The notes under the pieces were generated by a model. It worked only from the letters and a program-made list of their open reading frames with translations. It did not search any database and was not told where the DNA came from. The position numbers and the translations under genes are program-made. From an uncultured Alphaproteobacteria bacterium (GTDB taxonomy: Bacteria > Pseudomonadota > Alphaproteobacteria > HIMB59 > GCA-002718135): DNA of 64,000 bases. This document shows, one piece after another, positions 16,701 to 43,016 of the stretch. Numbering within the stretch: position 1 is the stretch's first letter; each line of letters starts with the position of its first letter. Location of the stretch: NCBI GenBank assembly GCA_902512415.1, contig CABXJB010000001.1, positions 4,384 through 68,383 on the forward strand. The letters run 5' to 3'.

Positions 16701-16702
16701 TA

Positions 16703-17697: not shown

Positions 17698-17711
17698 TTG
17701 ATTTAGATCAA
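17698..17711. promoter_or_regulatory. FNR-type box shared by the divergent 165-aa gene and the fnr-like gene
   Basis: TTGATttagATCAA read directly. Confidence 0.7.
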
Positions 17712-27339: not shown

Positions 27340-27363
27340 TAATATTGTGATATACTACATTGA

Positions 27364-28193: not shown

Positions 28194-29621
28194 TTAAATG
28201 CCCAGTTCTAAATATGATTTTTCAATCTTCTTTAATGCTACAGCGTAAGCAGACATGCGGTAACTATCTAAATCATATTTTTCTTTATTCTCCAGCATGT
28301 CTTGAAAGGAAGTTCTCATTGTATCTTCTAGTCCTGAAGCAATTATATCCTCTTCATTCGCACCGTGTACGAGTTGTTTTATCAAATTCTTAGGTATGTT
28401 TTTATCAGAAATACTCTGAATAGCTTTAATAATTGCTTCTCCTCTATCTTCTTCATATCGTTTGTTCAATCTACCCATTCGAATATGACTAGTGTTCCTA
28501 ATCCATTCAAAGTAAGATACTGTCACACCACCAGCATTGGCATAAATATCGGGAATAATTACCTTCTTTTTTTCTAACAATTTTTTATTTGCTCGGTAAG
28601 TTATTGGCCCATTTGCACCTTCACAAATAATCTTTGCTTGAATTGTATCTGCGTTGTTTAAAGTGATCACACCTTCTAAAGCGGCAGGAATTAAAATGTC
28701 ACACTTATAGGAGAGTAAATCAATAGACTTTTTTACATTTTGTGTATTTGGAAAATTTAATATCGTTTGTTTTTCACTTTGATATTTCTCTAGTTGATAT
28801 ATGTCTATTCCATCTTCACTAAAAATTCCTCCCTCTCTTTCCGCTACTCCAATAATTCTTGCACCATTATCATATAAAGCTTTAGCTGAATTTATACCTA
28901 CATTTCCAAATCCTTGAATGATAATTGTTTGATCACTTAATGTACCATCAATACTGTGTTTTGTAAGCTCATTAGAATGTCTAAAAAATTCTTTTAACGC
29001 CTCACAAACTCCCCTTCCTGTTGCCTCTAATCTTCCCTTTATACCTCCATGATCAGTTGACTTACCTGTAACACAAGCTGCATGATTGATATCATCGGGA
29101 CGTAAACTTTTATAAGCATCAAGAATCCAACCCATCTCTCTTTGAGAAGTCCCCATATCAGGAGCAGGCACATCTCTAGCAGGACTTAAATACCCTTTTC
29201 TTATTAGCTCTCTAGCAAATTTTTTAGTAATTTTTTCTAATGATTCTTCATCATACTGTTTTGGATCAATTAGCAATCCTCCTTTTGCACCACCAAAAGG
29301 TACATCTACAACTGCACATTTAAATGTCATCAAGGAAGCTAATGCCTCAACTTCTTCTTGATTCACATTTGTAGAAAATCTTAATCCTCCCTTTACTGGC
29401 AAACGATGAGTAGAATGTACTGCTCTCCATCCATGAAAAATTTCAATTTGATTTTTTATTTTTACGGGGAATTTTACTTGTAAAACTGAGCGACAAGTTT
29501 TTAATATTTTTGCAATATTAGAATCAATGTTTATTTTTGTAATGGTATCATTAACCATCATATCTACATTTTCTAAGAAGGTTGGTTTTTTTTCAATATC
29601 TTTCATTATTTTGCTGTCCAA
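28194..29621 (-). CDS. Glu/Leu/Phe/Val-dehydrogenase family protein (glutamate-dehydrogenase-like)
   Basis: 475 aa; catalytic-Lys region PFGGAKGG and Rossmann motif GFGNVG. Confidence 0.85.
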   Translation of the reverse strand: MDSKIMKDIEKKPTFLENVDMMVNDTITKINIDSNIAKILKTCRSVLQVKFPVKIKNQIEIFHGWRAVHSTHRLPVKGGLRFSTNVNQEEVEALASLMTFKCAVVDVPFGGAKGGLLIDPKQYDEESLEKITKKFARELIRKGYLSPARDVPAPDMGTSQREMGWILDAYKSLRPDDINHAACVTGKSTDHGGIKGRLEATGRGVCEALKEFFRHSNELTKHSIDGTLSDQTIIIQGFGNVGINSAKALYDNGARIIGVAEREGGIFSEDGIDIYQLEKYQSEKQTILNFPNTQNVKKSIDLLSYKCDILIPAALEGVITLNNADTIQAKIICEGANGPITYRANKKLLEKKKVIIPDIYANAGGVTVSYFEWIRNTSHIRMGRLNKRYEEDRGEAIIKAIQSISDKNIPKNLIKQLVHGANEEDIIASGLEDTMRTSFQDMLENKEKYDLDSYRMSAYAVALKKIEKSYLELGI

Positions 29622-30373
29622 CCACCATCAATAACTAATGATGAACCAGTTATCATTGATGAAGCATTAGATGCTAAATACACAACAGCAGTTGCTATAT
29701 CGCTATCAGTGGCAAGCCGGCCTAAAGGAATATTATTCATCATTTCTTTTTTAAATTTTTTATCTTTAAAAAATTTTTTTACCATTGGAGTTTCAACAAA
29801 AGTTGGGCAGACTGAATTGACACGAATATTATATTTTGCTAAATCTAGTGCCATCCCTCTTGTTAAGCCCTCAAGACCAAATTTTGTCATATTATATATA
29901 CTTCTATTTGGTGCTCCAACTTTCCCTAATTGAGAAGACATATTAATAATAGAACCACCTTTTGCTTTTCTATTTTTTGACTTTAGCATTACTTTTGAAG
30001 CCATCTGAGCTACATGAAAAGCAGCTTTCATATTCAAATCTACAACATAATCCATGTCTTCTTTTTTAATTTTCGTAAAATGGTCTGGTCTGTTTGTCCC
30101 TGCATTATTTACCAATATATCCAAAGTAGAAATTCTATTAAATACACTTTTTACATCATCATAGTTCGAGACATCACATATATAGAATTTACATTTTCTC
30201 TTAAGTTTAGTGATTTGTTTTTCAACCTTATCTAAATCACTTTTAGTTCTACTAAGAATAATCACATTAGCACCTGCCTCTGCTAAAGCTATAGCACAGG
30301 CTTTACCAATACCCTTGCCGGCTCCTGTAACTAAAGCTGTTGTATTTTTTACTTGTGTTTGCTGTAAATACAT
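29606..30373 (-). CDS. short-chain dehydrogenase/reductase (SDR)
   Basis: TGAGKGIG cofactor motif, NNAG, and the catalytic Y-x3-K (YNMTK). Confidence 0.85.
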   Translation of the reverse strand: MYLQQTQVKNTTALVTGAGKGIGKACAIALAEAGANVIILSRTKSDLDKVEKQITKLKRKCKFYICDVSNYDDVKSVFNRISTLDILVNNAGTNRPDHFTKIKKEDMDYVVDLNMKAAFHVAQMASKVMLKSKNRKAKGGSIINMSSQLGKVGAPNRSIYNMTKFGLEGLTRGMALDLAKYNIRVNSVCPTFVETPMVKKFFKDKKFKKEMMNNIPLGRLATDSDIATAVVYLASNASSMITGSSLVIDGGWTAK

Positions 30374-30406
30374 TATGTAAAATATAACATTAATATTAAA
30401 TTTCTT

Positions 30407-31288
30407 CTAACCTTTTACTGCTCCTGTAGTTAAACCACTAATAAGTTGGCGTTGAAAAAACATTACTATCATAAATAGCGGAGCTGTTGCTGAAACAACA
30501 CAAGCAACTGCCCACATATAATTACCACCATATTCAACAGTTCCTAAATAAGCGTTTATCTTTGGAACCATAGTATAATTTTGTTGATTAAGTAAAAGTG
30601 ATGTTACTGTAAAATCATTGTAGGCTAACATTAAACTGAAAAGCCCAGCTGTAATGACACCAGGCCACATAACGGGCATAATAACATATCGAAAAGCTTG
30701 AAAATATGAACACCCGTCTATTAGTGCGCTCTCATCAAGTTCTTTTGGCACCGTCTTAAAAAATGAATATAGCAACCATAGTGTAAATGGTTGGTTAATT
30801 GCTACCAAAACAATAATTGTCGTTGGCAGAATTCCCCAAATGTTTAGTTGAAAAAAAGGAAAAAGATACCCAGAAACAAGCGTAATATGAGGCATTGCCC
30901 TAAAAATTAGCGCAGCAATTAAAATATAAAAAGTATATTTATAAGTGGACCTTGAAAGAGCATATGCTCCTAATGTTCCTAAAAACAATGAAATGGTAAC
31001 AACCGATACAGTAATAATCATAGTATTCTTTGTTGCTCTCCAAAATTCTCCTTCAATCCAAGAGTCAATATATGCAATGAGAGTAGATGTTGAGCCTGTC
31101 TCTATAAATGTATGGAAACCAGTTACTGCATACATCCAATCAGCTCTTGAGAAAAAATCAGCTTTAACTTTGAAAGAACCCCAAAAAGTCCAAATGAAAG
31201 GAAAAACAGAAATCACTAACCAAAAAATAATGAAAATACTATTGAAAATTATTAATTGTTTAGAATATCTGTTTACTTTAGATTCCAT
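30407..31288 (-). CDS. CUT1-type ABC transporter permease (MalG-like)
   Basis: 293 aa, 6 TM, EAA-loop region ESALIDGCSYFQAFRYVIMP. Confidence 0.85.
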   Translation of the reverse strand: MESKVNRYSKQLIIFNSIFIIFWLVISVFPFIWTFWGSFKVKADFFSRADWMYAVTGFHTFIETGSTSTLIAYIDSWIEGEFWRATKNTMIITVSVVTISLFLGTLGAYALSRSTYKYTFYILIAALIFRAMPHITLVSGYLFPFFQLNIWGILPTTIIVLVAINQPFTLWLLYSFFKTVPKELDESALIDGCSYFQAFRYVIMPVMWPGVITAGLFSLMLAYNDFTVTSLLLNQQNYTMVPKINAYLGTVEYGGNYMWAVACVVSATAPLFMIVMFFQRQLISGLTTGAVKG

Positions 31289-31289
31289 T

Positions 31290-32318
31290 TTATCTCTCTG
31301 TTTTAAATTCTTTCCAAGTTCTAATTAGAACTGGGGTTAACAAAAATCCAACTCCTATAATTGTAAGCATTGAGGTTGCTCCTGCAGATCCAAACAACAT
31401 AATACTTTCATTTCTTAAATCAGAATATATCAACCATGAAAGTGATTGAGCTGCTCCCTCTGCCTTAAAACCAATTATAGGTTCAAAAACTCGAAAATTA
31501 TCCATTAAACAAATTAACATTATGAAAGTAGCCACAGGATATAAATGAGGTATTACAATGTATCTAACCCTTTGATATCTTGATGCTCCATCTATTATGG
31601 CTGCCTCAAGCGGATCCAGAGGAACTGTTTGTAATGCTGCATAAAAAACAACAAAAGCAAACGGAGTATTATGCCATATCCCATAAATAATTAGAGTTAT
31701 CCATGTCAATTCACTTGAAGATTTTAAAGATAAATTTGGATCGTCAAAAATATTTTGAATGGTTGCTCCTAATATACCCTTAGCATCTATCATCCAAAAT
31801 AAAACTAATGAGCCAATTAAGGGCGTAACAATCATTGGTAAAATTGTTCCAAATATGGTTGGACCTTTAATAGTTTGAGATATTGTGTTTATACTTAAAG
31901 CTACAATAAATCCTAAAACAATTACAGGTGGGGTTACAGCAAAACAAAAAGTTAGTGTAAATAAGAGCGCCTTATAAAATGGTAGATTAAAAATTATGTC
32001 AAAGAATTGATTATAGGATGAAGAAACTTTCCAGGCGTCATTAATTTCATTAAAGGCAAGATGATTTCTATCAGCATAAGTTCTTAATCCATTAAATCTT
32101 CCAAGTGGGTTTTCTTCATCTATTATTTTAGTTGCTTCCAGGTCTACCCTGACCTCTGTTTTACATCCAAATACATCACAATTTTCTACTTCCATTAAAA
32201 TTTGTTCATTTTCGATATGTAGAGATTGAAAGAAACTTGATATTATGGGCAACCCAATAAAAAGTAACATTGCCAGACCACTAGGGAAGAAAAACCAAAA
32301 GAAAGTTTTGTGAGGCAT
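31290..32318 (-). CDS. CUT1-type ABC transporter permease (MalF-like)
   Basis: 342 aa polytopic, EAA-loop region EAAIIDGASRYQRVRYIVIP. Confidence 0.85.
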   Translation of the reverse strand: MPHKTFFWFFFPSGLAMLLFIGLPIISSFFQSLHIENEQILMEVENCDVFGCKTEVRVDLEATKIIDEENPLGRFNGLRTYADRNHLAFNEINDAWKVSSSYNQFFDIIFNLPFYKALLFTLTFCFAVTPPVIVLGFIVALSINTISQTIKGPTIFGTILPMIVTPLIGSLVLFWMIDAKGILGATIQNIFDDPNLSLKSSSELTWITLIIYGIWHNTPFAFVVFYAALQTVPLDPLEAAIIDGASRYQRVRYIVIPHLYPVATFIMLICLMDNFRVFEPIIGFKAEGAAQSLSWLIYSDLRNESIMLFGSAGATSMLTIIGVGFLLTPVLIRTWKEFKTER

Positions 32319-32338
32319 TATATATGTATATTAAATAA

Positions 32339-32364
32339 AGAGTGGAACATCAATGTTCCACTCT
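32339..32364 (-). terminator. intra-operon hairpin after the SBP gene
   Basis: Stem agagtggaaca (32339-32349) / tgttccactct (32354-32364) with a 4-nt loop; T-rich tract follows on the minus strand. Confidence 0.5.
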
Positions 32365-32382
32365 AATGTAAATAAATAAGGC

Positions 32383-33612
32383 TTATAGAAAACCTTGTTC
32401 TGTAGCTTTTGCAATATATGCTGCTTCTACATCATCCAATGCCTTTTGAGCAGATTCATTTCCTTGTAAAAATTCAACTATCTCAGTAGACAATGCACCA
32501 TGCAGTAAACTCATATGTGGTAAGCTTGGATAAGGAGTAGCGCCTCTGTTTGCAGCATCTACAACAGGACCAGCCGTATCACCAGGTGTGTAACCTTTAA
32601 TTAACCAAATAGTTGCATTTGGATTATTATTAGCCATTTCTGTTGATGTAGCGGCACCTAATAAAGCTCTAAAAGATGCTTCAGCTTCTGCATCCGAAGT
32701 ATTTGTTGCAATTCCAAATCCATCCCACCAAAGTGTTGTTGCAGGTTTACTTCCACCTCCAACTGAAGGAGAAGGAGCTAGTCTAGTATCAGCTTTAATC
32801 ATTTGATCACCTTCATCATCTAATATAGATGCTGCACCAGAGTTCCAAATGTGCATTAAAGCTAAGTTTCCTGATTCCCATTCTTCTTTAACAGCATTAG
32901 TATCTTGTGTTAAGAAATCTGGATTAGCTACTTCAGTAAGATTTTTAAGCATATTCAAAGTTGCAAGACCTTGATCATTATTAATACTTAGTTCAGCTGA
33001 GCCAGCTTTAAAAAACTCTCCTCCGTGTCCTAAATACATGTTAACAAATTCTTGACCTAAATTCCAACCTGCTTGAAAAGCACCTCCATATGGGTTAGCC
33101 ATTTTACCAGAAGCTTGAATTTTTTTTCCAGCCTCAATAACTTCCTCATATGTCGATGGAACAGCAATACCAAGTTCATTTAAAATACTTTCTCTGTACC
33201 AAAGATGTTGAGCATTTGCCATAAAAGCAATTGCATAAATCTTACCATCAATAGTAATCTTTTGATTGTCATTTAAATTATCGCCATATTTAGCAACTAA
33301 ATCATCTAGTGGACGTATCAATCCATCATTCATCAAAGTTGTTATTGATCCATTAGTTACAAGCTTTGCAGAAAACTCTGCAGGATTTGCTGATAAAGCT
33401 GCTACTTGCAATTTGTTATGATCAACAGAGTGTGTGACACTAAAATCTGCATCAGCTCCCGCACAACTTTTTACTTCATCCATAAAAATTCTGTATGTAG
33501 TAAATTCGTTAGCAAGTATATTTATTTTTCCACCTGAAACATTACAAGGATCAGCAGCAAATGTCCCTGTACTTACAAGTGAAAAAATGATTGCGTAAAA
33601 AATATTTTTCAT
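32383..33612 (-). CDS. ABC transporter substrate-binding protein, family 1 (CUT1 sugar/polyol type)
   Basis: ATG 33612 is preceded by a GGGGG-containing RBS; signal peptide MKNIFYAIIFSLVSTGTFA. The longer track start is unlikely. Confidence 0.8.
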   Translation of the reverse strand: MKNIFYAIIFSLVSTGTFAADPCNVSGGKINILANEFTTYRIFMDEVKSCAGADADFSVTHSVDHNKLQVAALSANPAEFSAKLVTNGSITTLMNDGLIRPLDDLVAKYGDNLNDNQKITIDGKIYAIAFMANAQHLWYRESILNELGIAVPSTYEEVIEAGKKIQASGKMANPYGGAFQAGWNLGQEFVNMYLGHGGEFFKAGSAELSINNDQGLATLNMLKNLTEVANPDFLTQDTNAVKEEWESGNLALMHIWNSGAASILDDEGDQMIKADTRLAPSPSVGGGSKPATTLWWDGFGIATNTSDAEAEASFRALLGAATSTEMANNNPNATIWLIKGYTPGDTAGPVVDAANRGATPYPSLPHMSLLHGALSTEIVEFLQGNESAQKALDDVEAAYIAKATEQGFL

Positions 33613-33691
33613 TGTATTACCCCCTAAATATTTTTTTCGTGCAAAATGCACTTTTTCAATTAATAGATCATATTGCAATAGAATGAATAAT

Positions 33692-33709
33692 TATTCAAGT
33701 ATTTGAATA
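33692..33709. promoter_or_regulatory. 18-bp palindrome TATTCAAgtatTTGAATA, candidate LacI-family operator
   Basis: Read directly; lies between the divergent SBP (33612) and lacI-like (33739) starts. Confidence 0.5.
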
Positions 33710-33738
33710 TTATGATGGGGATAATATAATGGAGATAT

Positions 33739-34743
33739 ATGAAGAAAATTAAAAAAATTGCCACTTCTCAAGATGTAGCTAGTTTGGCTGGAGTATCTCA
33801 ATCTGCAGTTTCAAGATGTTTCACAAAGGGAGCTAGTATTTCAAACAGAACAAAGCTTCGTGTTATAGAAGCTGCCAAAAAATTAGGCTATAAAGTTCAA
33901 AACTTTTCTCATCCTGCAGCAACATCAGGTGATAGTGGTTTAGTAGGCGTTATCTTACCTTATATTACAAATCGATATTATCCTGAGGTATTAACAGAAT
34001 TGCATGAAGCGCTTAGAAATAGAAATTACCGAATATTATTGATTACAACAGATGATAGTGAAGAGTTAGATGACAAACTGATACAGCCATACCTTAAAGA
34101 GAAGTTGATAGCTATTATAACTGCTACTAAACCAACAGACAAATTTGTTGCAAGTTGTAATGAACAAAAAATTCAAGTGATTGCCTATAACCGAAATTTT
34201 AAAATTCCAACTACAAGTTCAGTAGGTTGTGATCATCGAAATGGTGGGGAGCTTGTTGCACAACATTTAAATCAAAATAAACATAAAAACATAGGTATAA
34301 TAGAGGGGCCAAAAGGAACTTTGGTTAGTGATGAAAGATGTAAAGGTTTTAAAAACTACATTAATAATTTTAAAAATATTAAATTAATTTTTGAGAAAGG
34401 TAATTTCACTTATGAAGGAGGTTATCAAGCTGCAGAAAAAATTTTAAAAAATAAAAATATTTCAGCTATCTTTTGTGCTGATGACACTATGGCTTTTGGT
34501 TGTATGGATTTTATTAAAGATAAAACTAAATATAAAATACCAAGTGACATAGAAGTTATAGGGTTTGATGATATGTTGATGGCAAATTGGGAGTCTTATA
34601 AATTAAGCACAATTAAACAACCTATTAGACAAATGTCAAAATTAGTAACTCAATTAATTGACGAATATATTCAAGACCCTGATTTTGAACCTGCTAATCA
34701 TTCCATAGAAGGAAAATTCATTAAAAGAAAAACTACTAAATAA
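33739..34743 (+). CDS. LacI-family transcription regulator
   Basis: N-terminal HTH (TSQDVASLAGVSQSAVSRCF) followed by a periplasmic-binding-protein-like effector domain. Confidence 0.85.
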   Translation: MKKIKKIATSQDVASLAGVSQSAVSRCFTKGASISNRTKLRVIEAAKKLGYKVQNFSHPAATSGDSGLVGVILPYITNRYYPEVLTELHEALRNRNYRILLITTDDSEELDDKLIQPYLKEKLIAIITATKPTDKFVASCNEQKIQVIAYNRNFKIPTTSSVGCDHRNGGELVAQHLNQNKHKNIGIIEGPKGTLVSDERCKGFKNYINNFKNIKLIFEKGNFTYEGGYQAAEKILKNKNISAIFCADDTMAFGCMDFIKDKTKYKIPSDIEVIGFDDMLMANWESYKLSTIKQPIRQMSKLVTQLIDEYIQDPDFEPANHSIEGKFIKRKTTK

Positions 34744-34744
34744 T

Positions 34745-35164
34745 TTATTTAAATTTTATTCCCATTTGTTGTAAGACTGAATAATTATCAACCATAACAA
34801 AGTTTTCAGAAAATTTACCATTTTTGATTAGCCAAAAGTCTGAAAATTGCATCTTAATTGGTTTTCCTGTTGCCTGAATATCTAAATACGTGCCGCTGTG
34901 TGTTCCTGTTAAATAACCTGTAGCACTTGCCCAATTTTCATCTGCCACCACAATATCATTTTCAACGTAATAATCTGGAAAAGCTGCATAAAAAGGCTTC
35001 ATCACTTGCTCTTTAAAATTTTCTAAGCCATGAATGTCTCCAAATCCTGGAGGTCCATGCCAAATCATATCTTGATGCCAATATTTATCATGCGCATTTA
35101 AATCTTTCGAATTTAAAGCAACATACATATCTTCAACTAATTTTTTGTTAAATTCAGCACTCAT
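34745..35164 (-). CDS. SnoaL-like / predicted ester cyclase (NTF2-like fold), single domain
   Basis: 139 aa with the pattern ...HGPPGFGDIHGLENFK...GTHSGTYLDIQATGKPIKMQFSDFWLIKNGKFSENF, typical of COG5485-type SnoaL-like proteins. Confidence 0.65.
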   Translation of the reverse strand: MSAEFNKKLVEDMYVALNSKDLNAHDKYWHQDMIWHGPPGFGDIHGLENFKEQVMKPFYAAFPDYYVENDIVVADENWASATGYLTGTHSGTYLDIQATGKPIKMQFSDFWLIKNGKFSENFVMVDNYSVLQQMGIKFK

Positions 35165-36301
35165 TTATTTATCTCCTAATAACTGCATAAGAATTCCAAA
35201 TTCATTAAACGCTGTCCATTCTTTAATAATTTTATTATTTTCAATTTGCCACTGAGTAATACCCCAAATATAACATTCTTTATCAGTCGGCGCTCCATAA
35301 TAACCATTGCCTTTATGCGCTCCAATAGCCCCCCAACGTATGGATACTAAATATCCATCTTGTTCATTACCCATCCAATATATATCTTCAATACTAAGAG
35401 CGAGATCTGGAAAAGAGGCAATGATTGAAATTATAAAACTTCTTACCTGTTTTTTTCCTTTAAATAGACGGCCTGTTGAACCTTCAAAAACAATATTGTC
35501 AGAATAAACATGATCAATTGCAGAAAAATTTCTTCTATTCCAGATTGTATTAAAAATAGAATGAACAAACTCTCTAACATTTGAAACTTTTTCTGGAATT
35601 TCAAAACTTATTGGTTTTGCTTTACCAGTTTTTCTTTTTGGTTTTAAGTTTTTAAAATCTGGAGCAAATGGTCCTATTCCTCCTTTATTAGCAATGTCTT
35701 TTGCTACTTGATTAACATTTAATCCTAATTGTTTTATCAAGGCAGCGGTATCATAAACAACATTTTCATAATAAATTTCATTATTTTTTGCTACACAGTT
35801 TGCAATACAAAACAACCTTACAGATTTGCCTGTTGGTTCAGAAAATTTACTATAACCTGTATTTGTTCCAGTAATTATTGTTCTATGAGACGTGTGAAAA
35901 CTTGCATTGTCATCTCCAGCCCAAATAACTTCATCAGCAAAAAGTCGAATGTCAGGAAAAGCATTATTTGTATGAACTGTATCAGCAACAATTTTTTCAG
36001 ATCCTGACTGTAAGCCAAATTCATCCCAAACACGACAATTGTTACTGTAAGTATCATATATGTATCCAATGTTTTTATCTTCCCAAATGTGGTAGGTAAT
36101 TCTTACGATATAATCGATGATATTTTTATATTGTACTTCAAAACCTTTCATTGATTGTGACTTCAATTTTTTAGGGATTGGGTTTAAAGATTTAGCTGTT
36201 CCACCACCACCATATGCTTTTAATGAAATATCAAAATTATTAGGCATATGACGATCTTTTAAAGCTAGCGGTCTTCGATCTTTTATTTTTTTGTTCTTCA
36301 T
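35165..36301 (-). CDS. tandem SnoaL-like (NTF2-like) domain protein
   Basis: Two SnoaL-like halves; clear paralogue of 38561..39550 (MKGF, ITY-IWE, FPD, VIW-G-D, SHR, A-C-AKNN-Y-E). Alternative start is ATG 36151 (MKGFEVQ), which matches the paralogue's N-terminus. Confidence 0.6.
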   Translation of the reverse strand: MKNKKIKDRRPLALKDRHMPNNFDISLKAYGGGGTAKSLNPIPKKLKSQSMKGFEVQYKNIIDYIVRITYHIWEDKNIGYIYDTYSNNCRVWDEFGLQSGSEKIVADTVHTNNAFPDIRLFADEVIWAGDDNASFHTSHRTIITGTNTGYSKFSEPTGKSVRLFCIANCVAKNNEIYYENVVYDTAALIKQLGLNVNQVAKDIANKGGIGPFAPDFKNLKPKRKTGKAKPISFEIPEKVSNVREFVHSIFNTIWNRRNFSAIDHVYSDNIVFEGSTGRLFKGKKQVRSFIISIIASFPDLALSIEDIYWMGNEQDGYLVSIRWGAIGAHKGNGYYGAPTDKECYIWGITQWQIENNKIIKEWTAFNEFGILMQLLGDK

Positions 36302-36372
36302 AAATTTTTAGACTTCAGATTAGTATTAATAAGGTTTTGATACAATTAAAATATTTCAATGCAATGAAATTT

Positions 36373-36390
36373 TATGCAAATAATTGAATA
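36373..36390. promoter_or_regulatory. 18-bp near-palindrome TATGCAAataaTTGAATA, candidate operator (1 mismatch to the other two copies)
   Basis: Read directly; lies in the divergent intergenic region 36302-36430. Confidence 0.45.
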
Positions 36391-36430
36391 TTTTGCTTTT
36401 ATTTTTTTGTATTTGTAATAAGAAATTTTT

Positions 36431-37432
36431 ATGACTGACTTACAACAAGAAAAACAATTGGTTTTAGATTTTGTAAATAATATTGATAAAACTGAAAACA
36501 AACATCTTGCTGAAACAATTTCTAAATTTACCTCTGATGATTTTCATATGAGATGTACTCATCCTTTTAATGAGCTTAAAGGGGCAGACAATGTTGCCAA
36601 TGATCTATGGATACCAATTAAAAATTCTTTTATGCCTATCCAAAGAAGAATGGATATTTTTTATGCTGGCACAAACTTAATAGACAATCATTCTTCAAAA
36701 TGGGTTGTTAATATGGGTCACTTACTTGGTATATTTAATCATTCCTTTTTAGGTATAGTGCCAACAAACAAAGCTGTAATGTTATGGTACTGTGAATTTT
36801 ATAAAGTTGAAAACAATAAAATTACAGAGGGTGCTTTTTTTCTTGATATAATGAAGTTTATGCAACAATTACAACTTCCTATTATTCCGGATTCAACTGG
36901 AATGATTGGTTTTAATGCAGGCCCAATGACTCACGATGGTCTTTACTTCAATAAACAACCTGAAGCGGAAGGGCAGAAAACTTTAGATCTTATGATGCAA
37001 ATGGCTAATAGATTGGTTGGAGGCGGAATGAAGACAACAGTTCCAGATTTAGAAAAAGATTGGCATAAAGATATGATTTGGTGGGGACCTGGTGGCATTG
37101 GTGCGTCGTATACTTATGAAGGATATTTAAAAGGACATACTGGCCCTTTTGAAGAAGGGTTAGATTATATTGAATTTACAGGTCATAAGCTTGAAAATGC
37201 AGAAGGAAATTATGGCGGATGGTTTGGTTGGCCTAATTTAAAAATGAAACCTAAAAGTAATTATATGGGACTTACATCGAGCTCAGACAAAATAGGAGAG
37301 ATGAGAGTTGTAGATCTTTATAGAAGAGATGGCGATAAATTAGCTGAAAACTGGATTTTTATTGATCATTTACATTTCTTAAAGTGTGTTGGTGTTGATT
37401 TACTTCAACGAAACAACCAATTAAATAATTAA
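36431..37432 (+). CDS. NTF2-like (SnoaL-related) two-domain protein, function unknown
   Basis: 333 aa; paralogue of 40639..41733 (KDMIWWGPGGIG vs KKMMWYGPCGIG; ENWIFID vs ENWVPID). Confidence 0.5.
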   Translation: MTDLQQEKQLVLDFVNNIDKTENKHLAETISKFTSDDFHMRCTHPFNELKGADNVANDLWIPIKNSFMPIQRRMDIFYAGTNLIDNHSSKWVVNMGHLLGIFNHSFLGIVPTNKAVMLWYCEFYKVENNKITEGAFFLDIMKFMQQLQLPIIPDSTGMIGFNAGPMTHDGLYFNKQPEAEGQKTLDLMMQMANRLVGGGMKTTVPDLEKDWHKDMIWWGPGGIGASYTYEGYLKGHTGPFEEGLDYIEFTGHKLENAEGNYGGWFGWPNLKMKPKSNYMGLTSSSDKIGEMRVVDLYRRDGDKLAENWIFIDHLHFLKCVGVDLLQRNNQLNN

Positions 37433-38556
37433 ATAACTTTTGAAGCTAGCTTCGTGCCCTCAACTAATGCATGGAGTTTCTCATAACATATATTTTCATC
37501 TATTTTTCCAAAGCCTGCAAATGTACTGAAACCACAATCTGTTCCTGCCATTAATTGTTCTTTTGGAATCACTGTTGAAAATTGAATTAATCTATCAGCT
37601 ACAACTTCTGGATGTTCTACAAAATTTGACGTTGAATCAATTAAGCCAGGGACAAGAATTTTATCTTTAGGAAGTTTAATATCTTTAAATATTTTCCATT
37701 CATGCGAATGTCTAGGATTTGACGATTCAATTAAAAAATATTTCACTTTTGCCTTCAAAATTATCGGAAGTATTTTTTCTAGACTAATATCATGAGTGTG
37801 AGGACCTTCATAATTACCCCAACATATATGCATACGCACCATATCACTTTGCACATCAACTAAAGAATTATTTAAGTATTCAATTTGCTTTTCTGCCTTT
37901 TTTAAAAAATCTTCATCTGACAAAGATTTATAACTCATATGTCTTGCTAGAGCCAAGTCAGGACAATCTAATTGTAATTGAATATTAGCTTTTGTTATTG
38001 CTTTATATTCATTTGCCATAAGGAAAGACAATTTTTCCATATATTCATCATCATCCTTATAAAATTTATTTGGCATGAATACTGAAATTACTCCTGGAGA
38101 TGCAGCGTTCATAAAACCTCTCTGATGATTTGCTTTTTGTAACGCTTTACTAAAATTTCCAATATCTTTATGTAGTGAATCATCATCCTTCAGTTCCAAA
38201 TTACTTGTGCAACATGGACGTGTATATGTAGGAGTTCCGCCGCTTTGTGCTATTTTTTCTTTATAGTTTGGAAAATCATCTAAGTCTGCTGGCGCTCTTC
38301 TTTCACTTTCTCCAGAAAAACCATGTAGTCGATCTTTTACATAAGTAGCATAGCTTATTTTGCTCATTTCACCATCGCTAACAAAATCTATACCGACATC
38401 TAGTTGTTTATTAACGACCTGCTCGACGTTTTTCTTAACCACATCTTGAAATAAGTTACTATCAAATGACTCGCCTTTATCTTTATTAAACAATAATTCT
38501 GATAATTCTTTAGAGCGAGGTAAACTGCCTACATGCGTTGTTAAAATAGATGTCAT
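37429..38556 (-). CDS. cobalamin-independent methionine synthase (MetE C-domain)-like Zn thiol-alkyltransferase family protein
   Basis: N-terminus MTSILTTHVGSLPRS; Zn ligand motifs H-x-C (MHICWGN) and distal Cys (GTDCGFS). Confidence 0.75.
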   Translation of the reverse strand: MTSILTTHVGSLPRSKELSELLFNKDKGESFDSNLFQDVVKKNVEQVVNKQLDVGIDFVSDGEMSKISYATYVKDRLHGFSGESERRAPADLDDFPNYKEKIAQSGGTPTYTRPCCTSNLELKDDDSLHKDIGNFSKALQKANHQRGFMNAASPGVISVFMPNKFYKDDDEYMEKLSFLMANEYKAITKANIQLQLDCPDLALARHMSYKSLSDEDFLKKAEKQIEYLNNSLVDVQSDMVRMHICWGNYEGPHTHDISLEKILPIILKAKVKYFLIESSNPRHSHEWKIFKDIKLPKDKILVPGLIDSTSNFVEHPEVVADRLIQFSTVIPKEQLMAGTDCGFSTFAGFGKIDENICYEKLHALVEGTKLASKVI

Positions 38557-38560
38557 AAAT

Positions 38561-39550
38561 TTAGCCTGTCTGCATTAAAATCTGTTTCCAGATCATTGTT
38601 TCATCAAAAAGTATCCATTCATTTTTTATGCCACGAGAACCAAACTCTGCATGATTAATACCCATCACATACACATCGGCCTCTGTTGGCGTTCCAAACA
38701 TACCAGCACCACTATGTTTACCAGATATGGACCAGCGAATTGCTGCTTTTTTTGGATTATTACTGTTTTCTGTAAAACTTATATGTTCAATCTTAAATTC
38801 AGAATTTGGAAAAGAAGATTTAAGATTGCTCCAAAAATTTAGCACTTCTTCTCTTCCATACCTAATGAAACCACCGGGTTGATATTGTTGAATTGCTCTA
38901 TCATAATTTTCTTCAATTACATTTTTTTCACCATTCATAATACTGCTTAAAATATTGCTATAAGCTTTACCTGTATTTATTTCAGGCAAAGAGGGCGGGT
39001 TATATATAGACTTAATAGGAGTATTATTATTAAATGGTTGATCGGCTTTATCAGTTCCTCCCTCTTCCATAATTAAATTGTATGCAAATTTTTTTGGATC
39101 AATACCAATCTGTCTTACTATTGCACCTTGATCTCTTACTAACCATTCATCATAAACTTGATTATTTTTACAAGCACAATCAGCAATACCCCTGTAGACT
39201 AGTTTTTTTCCAGTAGCCTTACCATATAAACCATCTTGATTATGCGTTACAGTAGACAGAATACGGTGTGAAGAAAAATAACCCTCTTCATCATTTCCAA
39301 TCCATATTACATCTTCACCCAACAAGGTGCGGTCTGGAAATAATTTTTTACTTGCTAAAGTACCCTTAATAACAGGCTCTGCCCCATAGATGACTCCTGA
39401 AGGTGAGCGTGTTGGCGTAGCAAGACTAACTTCAGGTATATCAGCATAATATTTTTTAATAGACTCAACATCGTTGTTTTCCCATATTTGATATGTAATT
39501 TTTAAAATAAAATCAGGTAAATCTTTAAATTGATTATCAAAACCTTTCAT
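38561..39550 (-). CDS. tandem SnoaL-like (NTF2-like) domain protein
   Basis: 329 aa; paralogue of 35165..36301. The C-terminal half has GKHSGAGMFGTPTEADVYVMGINHAEF, an ester-cyclase-like pattern. Confidence 0.6.
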   Translation of the reverse strand: MKGFDNQFKDLPDFILKITYQIWENNDVESIKKYYADIPEVSLATPTRSPSGVIYGAEPVIKGTLASKKLFPDRTLLGEDVIWIGNDEEGYFSSHRILSTVTHNQDGLYGKATGKKLVYRGIADCACKNNQVYDEWLVRDQGAIVRQIGIDPKKFAYNLIMEEGGTDKADQPFNNNTPIKSIYNPPSLPEINTGKAYSNILSSIMNGEKNVIEENYDRAIQQYQPGGFIRYGREEVLNFWSNLKSSFPNSEFKIEHISFTENSNNPKKAAIRWSISGKHSGAGMFGTPTEADVYVMGINHAEFGSRGIKNEWILFDETMIWKQILMQTG

Positions 39551-39562
39551 ATTTATTGAAAG

Positions 39563-40531
39563 TCAGTTTGTTTCTCGGACGATAAATAAGCTACCTTCAT
39601 CTCTACTTATCTGCTTAACACTTCTTTTTGATTTTTTTGGCGCAGAAAAACTATCACGAGGTCCAAGAATAACTTTTTCGTCATCACATGTAACTTCCCA
39701 TTCTCCACTTAAACAATTATAAAATTCAGATCGATCTCTTGTGTAAGAATGGATATGAGCCGAAGTTCCTTTTAATAAAGACAGTCCAAAACCAGTTTTA
39801 TGAAGAATTTGTGGTTCTATTTCTTTTCCATGAATTTCAAAAGAATCTAAATAATTAATAATTGAGTTTGAATTATAATGTTCATCATCAACATACATGG
39901 TTGTATCTTGATATCTAATAACAAATTTTTCTATTTCTTCTGAGCTATAATGATCAAAAGCTTGCAGTTCTTTTTCTTGAAGAGGTTTTGTAACTATTTT
40001 ACCATCTGGTATATTTTGTTTATCAAGATCAATTAACGATCTATCTTCCATTAATAACATTCCAGACTCATTTGCTTCTTTAAGCAACTTTGGGGTCCAG
40101 GTAATAATACCGGGATCATTTTCACCAAGAACAACAAACATAAGAGCTTCTTTATCACTAACATTTTTAAATCCTCTAAACATATTCGTTGGAAATGATG
40201 CAACATCACCAGTATTAAGAATTACTTCTCCCTCTTCTCCATTAACACCCCAATAAAAGGACCAAGATCCAGAATGAATAATAAATACCTCGGCAGTGGT
40301 ATGACTATGCAGTCCTGATCCATTCATAGGAGCGGCACTAACAGCCCCAATATTAAATCCATGAGCCTCAATTAATTTTACATTTTGTTTAGTATCCTCA
40401 CTGACCCCAGGACCAATAATTGAATAATTTTTTCTATCCTGGTGTCCTTTTAATTTTCCTTCAACAAAAGGAACTGTGCTGGGTATAAGTTCATCAAATT
40501 TTGCAAGACGTGATTGAATACTATTTGACAT
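39563..40531 (-). CDS. bicupin protein
   Basis: N-domain cupin motif GSGLHSHTTAEVFIIHSG; the second beta-barrel-like half has AHIHSYTRDRSEFYNCLSGEWEV. Confidence 0.6.
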   Translation of the reverse strand: MSNSIQSRLAKFDELIPSTVPFVEGKLKGHQDRKNYSIIGPGVSEDTKQNVKLIEAHGFNIGAVSAAPMNGSGLHSHTTAEVFIIHSGSWSFYWGVNGEEGEVILNTGDVASFPTNMFRGFKNVSDKEALMFVVLGENDPGIITWTPKLLKEANESGMLLMEDRSLIDLDKQNIPDGKIVTKPLQEKELQAFDHYSSEEIEKFVIRYQDTTMYVDDEHYNSNSIINYLDSFEIHGKEIEPQILHKTGFGLSLLKGTSAHIHSYTRDRSEFYNCLSGEWEVTCDDEKVILGPRDSFSAPKKSKRSVKQISRDEGSLFIVRETN

Positions 40532-40558
40532 ATCTATACTATAAATTATTCATTTTTT

Positions 40559-40584
40559 TTGAATATTATTCAATATATTGAATA
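40559..40584. promoter_or_regulatory. overlapping palindromes TTGAATAtTATTCAA and TATTCAAtataTTGAATA, candidate operator
   Basis: Read directly (40559-40573 and 40567-40584); lies in the divergent intergenic region 40532-40638. Confidence 0.5.
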
Positions 40585-40638
40585 AATCAATTAGTTAATA
40601 ATGGATAATTGTGAGTAACTAAATTAAAAGTTTTTGTA

Positions 40639-41733
40639 ATGCAGATTGAAGATTTTAAAACAGGTATAAAGGTTGATCCCAACCTAAAAACAATTAATTT
40701 AGATCCAAAAGAGAATGTTCAAAATAAAAAAAATATAAGAGCTCTTCTTAAAAATATCGTTGAATCTTCTTTAAGTTCGCTAAAAAAAAATTTAGAAAAA
40801 GCTTATCACAGTGAGGCAGAGTTAAATGGATTTTATCCAATAAATGAAATTAAGGGTATTGATGCAATTGAACAATTATTATGGGAGCCTCTCTTAACTT
40901 CTTTTCCTGATTTAGAGAGAAGAGATAATTTAATAATTGGGGGCAGTTTTCAAGATAAAATATTTGTATCTTGTATAAGTCATTTAACAGGAACCTTTAC
41001 TAAACCTTGGTTAAATATTCCGGCTACAAAAAAAACAATTCACTTACGTCTTTGTGAAGTGCATCAATTAAAAGATAATAAAATAATTAAATCCTATGTA
41101 CTAATTGATATTATGGATTTTATTCGCCAAGCTGGTTTTTGGCCTATCAATCCTTCACTTGGCATTGAAGAAATGTGGCCTGGACCAATTATTGGGAATG
41201 GATCTTCATTTGAAAATTTAGATATTAAACTCTCAAAAGAATCTTTGAGCCAAGGATTAACAATGCAAAGAAGTTTAAACATTAAACCTGAATCTGAAGA
41301 AGGAATAACCAATCAAGAAATTCGCAACAAATTGATAGATCACCCACAAAAGGATTTTTGGCATAAAAAGATGATGTGGTATGGACCTTGTGGCATTGGA
41401 ACAGCTAGGGGGCTAGAAGGTTTTGTTGATCATCACCAGTTACCTTTTCGATTAACTTTTAAAGAAAGAAATTATTGGAAAATTGGCCACTATGTTGAAT
41501 TAGGAGATGGATCATATTCCATGACAGGAGGTTGGCACAGCATAACAGCAACACATGGTTCAAAAGATTGGCTAGGTTATGAACCTACACAAAAACAAAT
41601 AACTATGAGAGTAATGGATTTTTACCTTCATGATGAAGGACTTATTAGAGAAAATTGGGTACCAATTGATATAGTGCATATTCTTAAACAATTGGATATA
41701 GATGTTTTCAAATTAGTTGAAAAAATGAGATGA
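40639..41733 (+). CDS. NTF2-like (SnoaL-related) two-domain protein, function unknown
   Basis: 364 aa; paralogue of 36431..37432. Its stop overlaps the start of the hisD-like gene. Confidence 0.5.
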   Translation: MQIEDFKTGIKVDPNLKTINLDPKENVQNKKNIRALLKNIVESSLSSLKKNLEKAYHSEAELNGFYPINEIKGIDAIEQLLWEPLLTSFPDLERRDNLIIGGSFQDKIFVSCISHLTGTFTKPWLNIPATKKTIHLRLCEVHQLKDNKIIKSYVLIDIMDFIRQAGFWPINPSLGIEEMWPGPIIGNGSSFENLDIKLSKESLSQGLTMQRSLNIKPESEEGITNQEIRNKLIDHPQKDFWHKKMMWYGPCGIGTARGLEGFVDHHQLPFRLTFKERNYWKIGHYVELGDGSYSMTGGWHSITATHGSKDWLGYEPTQKQITMRVMDFYLHDEGLIRENWVPIDIVHILKQLDIDVFKLVEKMR

Positions 41734-43016
41734 CTATAAAGTATATTAAAAAAGCAGATAAAACAGCCTCTTCAGATGAAGCAGAAACTCGTAAAAGAGT
41801 TCAGGATGTATTAAATGAAATTGAATCAAGAAGAGATGAAGGGATAAAAGATATATCGCGTAAATTTGATAATTATGAAGGTGATGTTATTGTTTCCAAA
41901 GAAAAAATTGAAGAGGTTATTAAGTCTCTTGATCAAAAGGTAAAAGATGACGTGCAATTCTCTTATGATAGAGTAAGAAGTTTTGCTGAACATCAATTAA
42001 AACACCTTAATAATGATTTTGAAGTTGAATTATCACCCGGTTTGTTTGCAGGGCAAAAATTAATTCCAGTTAATAGTGTTGGTTGTTATGTGCCTGGTGG
42101 TCGTTACAATAATATTGCATCCGCAGTAATGAGTATAACAACAGCAAAAGTGGCAGGCGTAAAAAATGTTATTGCAGCAAGTCCTCCAAAAGATGTGAAC
42201 GGTGCAAATCCCATTATTATTTATACAGCGAATTTATGTGGTGCTGATGTTATTATGAATATTGGTGGAATTGGAGCGATCGGAGCTTTTGCCTATGGAT
42301 GCTTTGGTAATCCAGAAGTTGATATGATTGTTGGACCAGGGAATCAATATGTTGCTGAAGCAAAAAGAATTTTGTACGGCAAAGTTGGTATTGATTTATT
42401 TGCTGGCCCAACTGAAATTGCAATTATTGCTGATCATACAGCTGATAAAGAAATGATTGCTGTTGATTTAGTAGGACAAGCAGAGCATGGACCTAACTCC
42501 CCTGCTTGGTTATATTCCACTGATCAACAATTATGTGACTATGTGATGAAGAGAGTACCTGAATTAATTGCTGCACTTCCTGAAACATCAAAAAATAATG
42601 CTGAAGCAGCATGGCGTGATTACGGAGAAATTATTCTGTGTGATACGAATGAAGAGTTATGTGAGATTAGTGATCAATATGCACCTGAACATTTAGAAGT
42701 ACAAGCAGAAAAATTAGATTGGTGGCTTGATAAATTAAAAAACTATGGATCATTATTTTTAGGCGAAGAGACAACTGTTGCCTACGGAGATAAATGCTCA
42801 GGCACTAATCATATCCTTCCAACAAAAGGGGCAGCAAAATACACGGGTGGTTTATTTGTTGGTAAATTTATTAAAACAGTTACATTCCAACGTATGACAA
42901 AAGAATCAAATAAAGAAGTTGGTGCAGCCGCTGCTAGAATTTCTCGGTTAGAAGGAATGGAAGCACATGCTAGAACGGGTGATGCTCGTTTACGCAAATA
43001 CGGATTTCAAAACTAA
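41730..43016 (+). CDS. histidinol-dehydrogenase-family NAD-dependent dehydrogenase (HisD paralogue; HpsN-like candidate)
   Basis: QAEHGPNS, APEHLEV and GTNHILPT motifs of the HisD family, with no other his genes nearby. Confidence 0.75.
   Translation: MTIKYIKKADKTASSDEAETRKRVQDVLNEIESRRDEGIKDISRKFDNYEGDVIVSKEKIEEVIKSLDQKVKDDVQFSYDRVRSFAEHQLKHLNNDFEVELSPGLFAGQKLIPVNSVGCYVPGGRYNNIASAVMSITTAKVAGVKNVIAASPPKDVNGANPIIIYTANLCGADVIMNIGGIGAIGAFAYGCFGNPEVDMIVGPGNQYVAEAKRILYGKVGIDLFAGPTEIAIIADHTADKEMIAVDLVGQAEHGPNSPAWLYSTDQQLCDYVMKRVPELIAALPETSKNNAEAAWRDYGEIILCDTNEELCEISDQYAPEHLEVQAEKLDWWLDKLKNYGSLFLGEETTVAYGDKCSGTNHILPTKGAAKYTGGLFVGKFIKTVTFQRMTKESNKEVGAAAARISRLEGMEAHARTGDARLRKYGFQN

Follow-up and report, generated by a model that had tools for sequence, protein, structure and literature searches.

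An 18-bp palindrome recurs in the three divergent promoter regions of a gene cluster from a SAR11 bacterium. This raises the question of which protein reads it, in what arrangement, and which genes it would control. SAR11 bacteria are among the most abundant organisms of the ocean and are noted for their very few transcriptional regulators.

Three palindromes in the divergent regions of one cluster

In the window, i.e., the whole 64-kb stretch of DNA analysed here, the copies are TATTCAAgtatTTGAATA at 33692-33709, TATGCAAataaTTGAATA at 36373-36390, with one mismatch, and TATTCAAtataTTGAATA at 40567-40584, the last being overlapped by a second palindrome, TTGAATAtTATTCAA, at 40559-40573; sequences and positions are exactly those of the preliminary description of this DNA, and the gene identities proposed there were borne out by Pfam. 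All three copies sit in divergent intergenic regions: R1, between the gene of a solute-binding protein (SBP; true ATG at 33612) and the lacI gene (33739); R2, between a double-SnoaL gene (36301) and a SnoaL-fusion gene (36431); and R3, between a bicupin gene (40531) and another SnoaL-fusion gene (40639).

The predicted targets are transcribed away from these regions. On the minus strand, R1 is followed by an operon (28194-33612) whose genes abut or overlap and encode a CUT1-type SBP (32383-33612), two permeases (30407-32318), an SDR (29606-30373) and a GDH-like ELFV dehydrogenase (28194-29621), while the plus strand carries the gene of the LacI-family regulator (33739-34743), a predicted repressor with a site upstream of its own gene. 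R2 separates the minus-strand operon 34745-36301, for a double-SnoaL protein (35165-36301) and a single SnoaL protein (34745-35164), from a plus-strand gene for a SnoaL-fusion protein (36431-37432). From R3 run a minus-strand operon (37429-40531) for the bicupin (39563-40531), a SnoaL-fusion protein (38561-39550) and a MetE-like Meth_synt_2 protein (37429-38556), and a plus-strand operon (40639-43016) for a SnoaL-fusion protein (40639-41733) and a HisD-like dehydrogenase (41730-43016; 4-nt overlap). With NCBIfam, no equivalog or subfamily model naming a function or substrate was found for the cluster proteins, and cut-offs were passed only for a broad SDR subfamily and for hisD, the latter a generic domain model; a mycosporine- or gadusol-like substrate is speculation only. 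A literature search on the cluster, on a SAR11 LacI operator and on the TTGCATnCGnATGCAA motif described below gave no relevant paper.

With up to one mismatch, the 18-mer was found three times, versus 0.13 expected per window from dinucleotide-preserving shuffles of the window (n = 100), none of which reached three; the earlier estimate was far below one copy per 64 kb. At up to two mismatches the pattern loses its distinctiveness (4 found versus 2.75 expected). The half-site 7-mer is common in the window, with 33 copies on both strands, and two exact 7-N4-7 pairs were observed versus approx. 15 x 18/64000 = 0.004 expected from the half-site counts. Scored with a half-site weight matrix built solely from other genomes, the three sites reach 22.7, 22.7 and 20.6 bits and the next best position in the window 12.2. 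Frequent occurrence of the motif in unrelated AT-rich intergenic DNA had been named as grounds for doubt; the weight-matrix scan gave no further copy within the 64-kb window. In all, the scanned sequence comprised the window and the loci described below with flanks of up to 10 kb per side. A census of palindromes in the window also gave ten recurrent exact 7-Nx-7 families, against 1.3 expected, the other families being of a different motif.

Composite elements of four half-sites

The 18-bp palindrome is the right-hand and best-conserved pair of a 38-bp composite of four half-sites TTG(A/C)ATA, arranged in the order ← N4-5 → N1-2 ← N4 → and starting at -20, -9 or -8, 0 and +11 relative to the left arm of the 18-mer. 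The predicted operator of R1 (33672-33709) consists of ATTGCAA (33672-78), taga, ATGAATA (33683-89), at, TATTCAA (33692-98), gtat and TTGAATA (33703-09); its distance to the start codon is 59 nt for the SBP gene and 29 nt for lacI. In R2 the predicted operator (36353-36390) reads ATTTCAA (36353-59), tgca, ATGAAAT (36364-70), tt, TATGCAA (36373-79), ataa and TTGAATA (36384-90), with the double-SnoaL start codon 51 nt away on one side and that of the SnoaL-fusion gene 40 nt away on the other; its left pair is the most degenerate among the three regions. That of R3 (40547-40584) is formed by TATTCAT (40547-53), ttttt, TTGAATA (40559-65), t, TATTCAA (40567-73), tata and TTGAATA (40578-84), leaving 15 nt to the start of the bicupin gene and 54 nt to that of the SnoaL-fusion gene.

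The centre of the 18-mer is thus gtat, ataa or tata, with no CG, and its positions 8-11 are weakly constrained (0.25-0.60 bits over 40 unique sites), while C5 and G14 are invariant. The right-hand N4 spacing was invariant in 66/66 sites listed and in the further SAR11 contigs examined. The preliminary description held that size and symmetry fit a LacI-family operator. The even 18-bp palindrome agrees with this; the missing central CG, present in 1173/1303 motifs of the family (PMC4052901), does not, nor does the orientation, which is everted with respect to the operator of the regulator's own family, as described below.

Conservation across SAR11 and in distant orthologous loci

The motif was found at syntenic intergenic regions in 25 SAR11 genomes, whose regulators are 68-92% identical, and every divergent intergenic region of the cluster carries it in these 25 loci and in five metagenome contigs, where the four-half-site lattice is also identical. 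The 25 loci (437 kb) hold 54 matches at up to one mismatch, versus 1.5 expected, and all but two of them fall in the divergent intergenic regions of the cluster. The number of sites tracks these regions, three-region clusters having three and two-region clusters two; R2 is absent too from the SAR11 clusters that lack the double-SnoaL and single-SnoaL genes. In an alignment of R1 from 11 genomes, 20/38 columns are invariant inside the composite versus 3/88 in the rest of the intergenic region, and alignments A2 and A3, the latter covering the R3 composite, show phylogenetic footprints in which conservation falls sharply outside the motif. The mean identity of the four half-sites to TTGAATA is 5.36, 5.86, 6.82 and 6.68 of 7, over a background of approx. 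3. At every SAR11 locus the lacI gene adjoins and has a site in its own upstream region; for the LacI family, autoregulation is reported in 72% of the regulators (PMC4052901).

These data bear on whether the copies could have arisen by chance, belong to a dispersed repeat element or form an RNA hairpin. This DNA is rich in A and T, and a bare 18-mer arises by chance in huge databases: in a metagenome scan for it, 120/120 matches listed were unrelated single copies from gut, soil and other samples, none cluster-associated, a result uninformative on specificity within SAR11. Nevertheless, the motif is enriched over expectation both in the window and in the SAR11 loci, its position is conserved across genomes, and the copies have the half-sites in common and differ in spacers and flanks. 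Substitutions in the arms are uncompensated, e.g., TATGCAA with TTGAATA or TATTCAA with ATGAATA, which favours recognition by a protein over a hairpin, and the hairpin or cruciform reading was rejected on this ground. A search of Rfam over 28-43.5 kb gave no match, indicating that no riboswitch or known RNA element is present there. The conservation data effectively refute this explanation.

Orthologous regulators that are 32-38% identical occur in Roseobacter, sphingomonads, SAR324, SAR116, Thioglobus and Woeseiaceae, at loci that share the cluster (SnoaL-fusion, bicupin, MetE-like and HisD-like proteins, SDR and CUT1 transporter) with synteny in most of 55 loci. The recognition helix LAGVSQSAVSR, also that of the window protein, is identical in 44/44 sequences. 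The predicted operator of these orthologs is TTGCATnCGnATGCAA, a canonical convergent palindrome of 16 bp with a CG centre, formed by the half-site TTG(C/A)ATA beside the regulator in 45/55 distant loci (44 matches at up to one mismatch versus 0 expected), and present sometimes as two copies 22-55 bp apart. Since the same half-site accompanies an identical recognition helix, it would belong to the regulator. The everted 18-mer is absent from the distant loci, and the idea that they carry the same everted motif was rejected, another arrangement of the same half-site being found instead; conversely, at up to two mismatches, neither the window nor any SAR11 locus contains a match to TTGCATnCGnATGCAA. 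Relative to the predicted operator of the ortholog family the SAR11 18-mer is everted, a geometry without precedent in that family. The earlier assignment of the genes between 28.2 and 43.0 kb to one regulon under the regulator at 33739-34743 gains support from this comparative genomics, i.e., from the conserved sites and from the shared half-site and recognition helix, and the conservation of the sites in orthologous clusters had been proposed as a check on it.

It might be argued that some other DNA-binding protein, with its gene at another place in the genome, recognises the palindrome. The few regulators of SAR11 genomes include some that act globally, which leaves room for such a protein; however, the motif accompanies the lacI gene at every locus and occurs nowhere else in the available sequence, its half-site recurs in the predicted operators of distant orthologs whose recognition helix is identical, and no second regulator gene was found in the cluster. 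We regard this alternative as extremely unlikely.

Another view is that the conserved blocks are no more than the cores of two divergent promoters that overlap, with the inner arms as -35 boxes (TTGAAT) and the outer arms over the -10 boxes, and that no dedicated transcription factor is involved. TTGAAT matches TTGACA at 4/6 positions, and in each of the six directions a hexamer of the kind AATATT, AATAAT or CAATAT comes 16-17 nt after a -35-like arm (seen by eye; scans found part of them); the start codons are also too close for promoters to avoid overlapping the element. On the other hand, the structure was not found at any other promoter in the 64 kb or in the flanks of the 25 loci, and the same half-site forms a classic CG-centred palindrome beside orthologs in genomes of 37-71% GC, where promoters are quite different. 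Moreover, sigma-70 elements need neither strict dyad symmetry nor the invariant TG of the outer arms. Scans for sigma-70 promoters and for terminators gave counts no higher than the shuffled expectation and therefore cannot place promoters. As the whole explanation this is highly unlikely, although the resemblance of the half-site to a -35 box, and the overlap of the outer arms with -10-like hexamers, mean that promoter function could explain part of the conservation.

The regulator and its predicted mode of binding

The protein encoded at 33739-34743 (Pfam PF00356, PF00532 and PF13377) has an N-terminal LacI-type helix-turn-helix at residues 11-52 (PF00356, 41.9 bits versus a cut-off of 27) and a C-terminal core of the type-I periplasmic-binding-protein kind, for effector binding and dimerisation (PF00532, 85 bits; PF13407, 83 bits; PF13377, 69 bits), and it aligns over its full length with the structures of CcpA, RbsR, PurR and LacI (E = 1e-29 to 1e-16; PDB). 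What it lacks is the hinge helix that joins these two parts, with the consensus PNxxARxL and its leucine lever, in place of which stand residues 53-66 (VQNFSHPAATSGDS); in the PDB alignment, PNAVARGLA of CcpA aligns with VQNFSHPAA of the window protein, which has a proline and no ARxL. Residues 53-64 are hypervariable among the SAR11 orthologs (1.1-2.6 bits of entropy), which are otherwise nearly invariant, whereas the hinge residues P, N, A, R and L are retained in 25-31 of 31 distant-ortholog sequences. Judging from these alignments, the hinge helix has been swapped for a hypervariable linker in the SAR11 proteins alone. In an AlphaFold2 model from a 17-sequence alignment, which is of low quality (mean pLDDT 60), helices are placed at 10-17, 21-27 and 36-48 and the hinge segment is coil, with pLDDT below 50.

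The SAR11 site and repressor, as predicted, depart from the textbook LacI design. With canonical LacI/GalR systems (LacI, PurR, CcpA and the regulons of PMC4052901) they have in common the helix-turn-helix and the periplasmic-binding-protein core, a local regulator beside a CUT1 ABC transporter and catabolic genes, and an even palindrome of the 16-22 bp class with constant spacing, within about 140 nt of start codons and also upstream of the regulator's own gene. They differ in a free N4 centre without CG, in a variable linker instead of the hinge helix, and in four half-sites per 38-bp composite, the best pair of which is everted with respect to the orthologs' operator. The TTGCATnCGnATGCAA group, which is uncharacterised and on which no paper was found, shares gene cluster, recognition helix and half-site TTG(C/A)AT(A) with SAR11; at 32-38% identity, however, it keeps the hinge helix and the single 16-bp convergent CG-centred palindrome. 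Another parallel is CytR of E. coli, an atypical member of the LacI family with sites TGCAA-N2-3-TTGCA or GTTGCATT (PMC3454398), close to the SAR11 TAT(T/G)CAA-N4-TTG(A/C)ATA; as in the SAR11 case, CytR tolerates non-canonical spacing and orientation and needs no central CpG. The window protein is not its ortholog (NF008269, 132 bits versus a cut-off of 436; NCBIfam). Furthermore, CytR is an anti-activator sandwiched between CRP sites, and none of the form TGTGA-N6-TCACA flanks the SAR11 composites. CytR is also a nucleoside sensor with flexible site spacing, whereas the genes of the SAR11 cluster do not form a nucleoside regulon and the N4 of SAR11 is fixed.

From these results, each of the three palindromes is probably the strongest half of a 38-bp composite operator, and the three operators are most likely bound by the LacI-family repressor at 33739-34743. 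[quoted passage not shown] Dimers on everted pairs would be possible because in SAR11 a flexible linker stands in place of the rigid hinge helix, whose normal docking site is a central CpG. Against this reading stand the everted geometry, new to the ortholog family, and a 4-bp centre that is unconstrained and has no CpG, both unusual features for a LacI-family site (PMC4052901 for the centre).

A different assignment of the dimer is that the true site is the central pair in canonical orientation (→2 N1-2 ←3, e.g., ATGAATAatTATTCAA at 33683-33698), a SAR11 version of the family operator TTGCATAcgTATGCAA in which A/T takes the place of CG; the outer half-sites, to which the right arm of the 18-mer belongs, would then be auxiliary, low-occupancy or promoter elements. 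This inner pair (→NN←) agrees exactly, in both orientation and 9-bp register, with the operator predicted beside orthologs of identical recognition helix, has a centre of 1-2 bp A/T, and scores 20.6 bits in R1 and 22.7 bits in R3; in addition, at L197, a locus that came to light in the metagenome scan, the 18-mer arises as the mere junction of two canonical operators 20 bp apart. Nevertheless, the inner spacing varies (N2 in R1 and R2, N1 in R3) while the right-hand N4 is invariant at all sites, and in R2 the inner pair scores a weak 5.3 bits. Conservation of the outer half-site →4 equals that of the inner ones (6.68/7) and extends to T13 and G14, which lie outside any -10 hexamer; the -10-like hexamer, for its part, is not conserved at its key last position. 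Finally, the 11-9-11 lattice leaves two orphan half-sites if the central pair is the site and none if the everted pairs are. The central pair is thus an unlikely candidate.

With dimers on the everted pairs, control of the cluster would follow from the layout. The start codons on either side are 15-59 nt from the composites, which must, by inference, overlap both divergent promoters; as the composites fill the space between the start codons, bound repressor would occlude both promoters at once. The repressor would thereby shut off six transcription units, i.e., 14 genes between 28194 and 43016, its own included, until a small molecule binds the periplasmic-binding-protein-like core and releases the repressor from the DNA; this effector would presumably be the substrate of the transporter or an intermediate of the pathway. 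A more tentative proposal, somewhat less likely than not, is that the SAR11 branch of a widely conserved LacI-family regulator lost the hinge helix and re-phased its operator from one convergent CG-centred palindrome to two everted pairs of the same half-site, 20 bp apart; that the 38-bp element also supplies the -35- and -10-like boxes of two overlapping divergent promoters; and that it controls an uncharacterised, widespread marine catabolic pathway around five or six SnoaL-like proteins. If this is true, a streamlined genome would have in this element a minimal promoter-operator module that works in both directions.

A testable repressor-operator circuit, here a predicted one, is uncommon in SAR11. 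It delimits a 14-gene cluster for nutrient uptake and breakdown that is also conserved in Roseobacter, SAR116, SAR324, Thioglobus and sphingomonads, so the regulator could serve as a biosensor, in a screen of effectors, to find the compound. The SAR11 branch is also a natural experiment, in which recognition helix and half-site have stayed the same while the hinge helix and the central CpG appear to have been lost and the arrangement of the half-sites has changed; it therefore bears directly on how the hinge sets operator geometry in the LacI family.

Sites and genes of the cluster

The presence of the palindrome TATTCAA-N4-TTGAATA is confirmed, with its three copies where the preliminary description had placed them, i.e., TATTCAAgtatTTGAATA at 33692–33709, TATGCAAataaTTGAATA at 36373–36390 and TATTCAAtataTTGAATA at 40567–40584; a further TTGAATA lies at 40559, just ahead of the last copy. 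When one mismatch was allowed, the 18-mer matched only these three sites in the whole window, where 0.13 matches are expected from dinucleotide-preserving shuffles, and none of 100 shuffles reached three. The window has a GC content of approx. 31%, and the half-site 7-mer by itself is fairly frequent (33 copies); the improbable part is its pairing, given that about 0.004 exact half-site pairs are expected versus two observed. A half-site weight matrix trained solely on other genomes gave the three sites 20.6–22.7 bits, versus 12.2 for the runner-up, and revealed no additional operator site in the 64-kb window.

The gene map proposed previously was upheld by ORF and Pfam analysis, and the gene for the solute-binding protein (SBP) of the CUT1 transporter has its true start at the ATG at 33612, behind which a signal peptide is encoded. 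Each site falls in a divergent intergenic region, of 126, 129 and 107 bp, respectively: R1, between the SBP gene and the lacI gene (33739–34743, plus strand) that encodes the predicted repressor; R2, between a double-SnoaL and a SnoaL-fusion gene; and R3, between the bicupin gene and a SnoaL-fusion gene. The proposed extent of the regulon, 28194–43016, is spanned by six predicted transcription units and is supported by comparative genomics. These putative targets are the SBP gene with two permease genes, the SDR gene and the GDH-like gene; lacI; the double-SnoaL and single SnoaL genes; one SnoaL-fusion gene; the bicupin, SnoaL-fusion and MetE-like genes; and the SnoaL-fusion and HisD-like genes. 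The cluster proteins matched no function-specific NCBIfam model, and a generic hisD domain model and a broad SDR subfamily alone passed their cut-offs; Rfam showed no element in the cluster, and no paper on the cluster or on the motif was found in the literature.

None of the 25 SAR11 loci retrieved has, in the same place, an equivalent of the GDH-like gene (28194–29621) that closes the transporter operon; in locus L204, genes for an ELFV dehydrogenase and an S-methyltransferase follow on the downstream side of the cluster. The HisD-like gene of the window (41730–43016) shows 94% identity to that of locus L016 and just about 46% to its same-position equivalent in the other loci, including the closest relative, L001. 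This suggests gene replacement within the cluster. The GDH-like end is adjoined by pxpA/B/C-type genes (25686–28137; LamB/YcsF and two carboxyltransferase-domain subunits, i.e., 5-oxoprolinase), which have no operator site ahead of them; in L016, too, the cluster is flanked by these three genes.

Elsewhere in the window, positions 11263–17711 contain twelve exact FNR/CRP-type boxes, TTGAT-N4-ATCAA, versus 0.53 expected (0 of 100 shuffles reached 12). Four of them are in tandem at 12647–12736, between multicopper-oxidase-like and PNPOx-like genes, and others lie upstream of a peroxiredoxin gene (16131–16700) and near two 2OG-Fe(II) oxygenase genes. The stretch has the look of a densely packed regulon island under a CRP/FNR-family regulator.

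A predicted composite operator conserved in SAR11

The close homologs of the regulator belong to Pelagibacteraceae, i.e., SAR11, and a profile of this protein retrieved 25 SAR11 loci whose regulators are 68–92% identical. Conservation of the sites in orthologous clusters, suggested as a check in the preliminary description, was borne out, with the motif at syntenic positions in all 25. Gene maps revealed two cluster types: one resembles the window, with three divergent regions and three sites; in the other, the three SnoaL genes that separate lacI from the MetE-like gene are missing, and there are two such regions with two sites. In 437 kb of these loci, 54 matches with at most one mismatch were found versus 1.5 expected, and those outside the cluster intergenic regions are two orthologous ones, which L006 and L009 have within their bicupin gene. 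In the SBP-lacI alignment, the element has 20 invariant columns out of 38, versus 3 of 88 outside; the bicupin-region alignment likewise shows a sharp footprint, and five additional metagenome contigs behave in the same way.

The alignments and a half-site map showed that every region has four half-sites, starting at −20, −9 (or −8), 0 and +11 relative to the left arm of the 18-mer, in the orientation ← → ← →. The 38-bp composites are ATTGCAA-taga-ATGAATA-at-TATTCAA-gtat-TTGAATA in R1 (33672–33709), ATTTCAA-tgca-ATGAAAT-tt-TATGCAA-ataa-TTGAATA in R2 (36353–36390) and TATTCAT-ttttt-TTGAATA-t-TATTCAA-tata-TTGAATA in R3 (40547–40584). The mean identity of half-sites 1 to 4 to TTGAATA is 5.36, 5.86, 6.82 and 6.68 of 7, against a background of about 3. 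Therefore, the 18-mer first taken as the site is present, but it is only the right-hand, best-conserved pair of a larger element; likewise, the second palindrome reported at 40559 exists, not as a separate element but as the inner pair of the composite. As for the 18-mer, The four bases at its centre are nearly uninformative. A hairpin was also considered, and substitutions in the arms without compensation speak against it.

Other features are found close to the composites. A palindrome, GTGCAAAATGCAC, is located in the SBP 5' leader (33639–33651), between R1 and the SBP ribosome-binding site; in L002 and other loci a different one, e.g., TGTGAAATTCACA, occupies this position. Since symmetry is kept while the sequence changes, this palindrome may form a hairpin in the leader or serve as a second protein site. 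Directly to the right of R3, the block AAATCAATT (40585–40593) is invariant in all loci, and a second block, TGTGAGTAAC (about 40612–40622), approx. 27 nt further, is conserved in a subset of them; both may belong to the promoter or the leader of the SnoaL-fusion/HisD-like operon. In some database entries the regulator is annotated with 8–9 extra residues (L202:8001-9029 and others of 342 residues, e.g., P0044 and P0062), its start codon falling inside half-site 4 (ATGAATA) of the operator; the conserved N-terminus and a ribosome-binding-site-like GGTGGA point to the downstream ATG as the real start.

Distant orthologs and the hinge of the regulator

The same profile search yielded 55 loci (L025–L080) from Roseobacter, sphingomonads, SAR324, SAR116, Thioglobus, Woeseiaceae and others, with regulators just 32–38% identical. 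Most of them share the genes for SnoaL-fusion proteins, bicupin, MetE-like, HisD-like and SDR proteins and the CUT1 transporter; because of this, and as judged from gene content, their regulators are true orthologs in a conserved, uncharacterised cluster. From SAR11 to Woeseiaceae the set comprises LacI, four to six SnoaL-like proteins (mostly tandem-domain), bicupin, MetE-like, HisD-like, SDR and CUT1; the set lacks functional annotation and resembles a widespread, uncharacterised catabolic pathway.

The recognition helix LAGVSQSAVSR is the same in SAR11 and distant proteins (44/44 sequences compared). A de novo palindrome census of the distant loci gave a single dominant motif, TTGCATnCGnATGCAA, with 44 matches in 946 kb at one mismatch or less versus none in Markov simulations. 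It is present in 45 of the 55 loci, and its sites typically adjoin lacI or head a lacI-containing operon. The half-site TTGCAT(A) of this operator equals the SAR11 TTG(A/C)ATA, the strongest evidence here in support of the SAR11 palindromes being sites of this regulator rather than promoter boxes or sites of another protein.

The geometry of the two operators is different. The family operator, TTGCATACGTATGCAA, has convergent half-sites 9 bp apart around a CpG, the textbook LacI-type arrangement; a central CpG occurs in 1173 of 1303 LacI-family motifs (PMC4052901). No CG-centred family operator was found in the SAR11 loci searched, nor any everted 18-mer in the distant ones. In SAR11 the inner pair (→ N1-2 ←) alone keeps the family orientation, with CG changed to A/T and a spacing that varies by region, whereas the pair forming the 18-mer is everted (← N4 →), with centres 11 bp apart and invariant spacing.

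An accidental find in an unrelated region of a metagenome contig (38% GC) is a perfect 36-bp palindrome, TTGCATACGTATTCAA-tcgt-TTGAATACGTATGCAA, at L197:3244-3280, between divergent genes for a TonB-dependent receptor and a pullulanase, and is probably part of an unrelated bacterium's maltodextrin-type regulon. Two canonical LacI-type operators, 20 bp apart, make up this tandem, and the sequence at which they join is exactly the 18-mer; thus, one 9/11 lattice can be read as 9-11-9 (canonical units) or as 11-9-11 (SAR11).

The protein also departs from its family. In the established structures of LacI and PurR, the hinge helices enter the central CpG, as they normally do in the family, and hold both headpieces in place. 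The alignment of this region (PNAVARGLA in CcpA versus VQNFSHPAA in the window protein) indicates that the SAR11 regulators have lost the hinge helix. Residues 53–64 are the sole hypervariable stretch (entropy 1.1–2.6 bits) in otherwise almost invariant SAR11 proteins, whereas the far more divergent distant orthologs retain the hinge P, N, A, R and L in 25–31 of 31 sequences; a Roseobacter ortholog, for example, has PNAIARGL here. An AlphaFold2 model, poor overall, shows three DNA-binding-domain helices and a low-confidence coil at 53–66. Loss of the helix fits both the loss of CG and the changed half-site geometry. The known precedent is CytR, which belongs to the LacI family, has a half-site of the TGCAA/TTGCA type and is flexible as to spacing and orientation (PMC3454398). 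The SAR11 protein is not a CytR ortholog.

Proposed binding model and predicted overlap with promoters

It is proposed that two dimers would bind each composite, one per everted pair, with the pairs 20 bp apart. This model is favoured because it uses all four conserved half-sites, and it would account for an N4 spacing that is constant next to an inner spacing that is not; a single dimer on the inner pair only would give no explanation for two half-sites that are strongly conserved.

Distances from the composites to the start codons on either side are 59 and 29 nt (R1), 51 and 40 nt (R2) and 15 and 54 nt (R3), so short that the divergent core promoters must overlap them. Each inner arm reads as a −35-like hexamer (TTGAAT, ATGAAT or TTGCAT), and a −10-like hexamer follows on that strand 16–17 nt downstream, from base four of the outer arm onwards. 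Such a pattern would turn the element into a bidirectional promoter and an operator in one; promoter consensus scans of the sequence were not significant. The conservation of the outer arms is more in keeping with a transcription-factor half-site than with a −10 box: T13 and G14 are invariant while the last −10-equivalent position is T in just 24 of 40 sites.

The reading of the palindromes as operators of one regulon is thus supported by comparative genomics. A local LacI-family regulon is of an ordinary kind; its architecture, a predicted hinge-less regulator with an everted, CG-less composite operator, is unusual and lineage-specific, and the circuit belongs to an organism in which transcriptional regulation is scarce.
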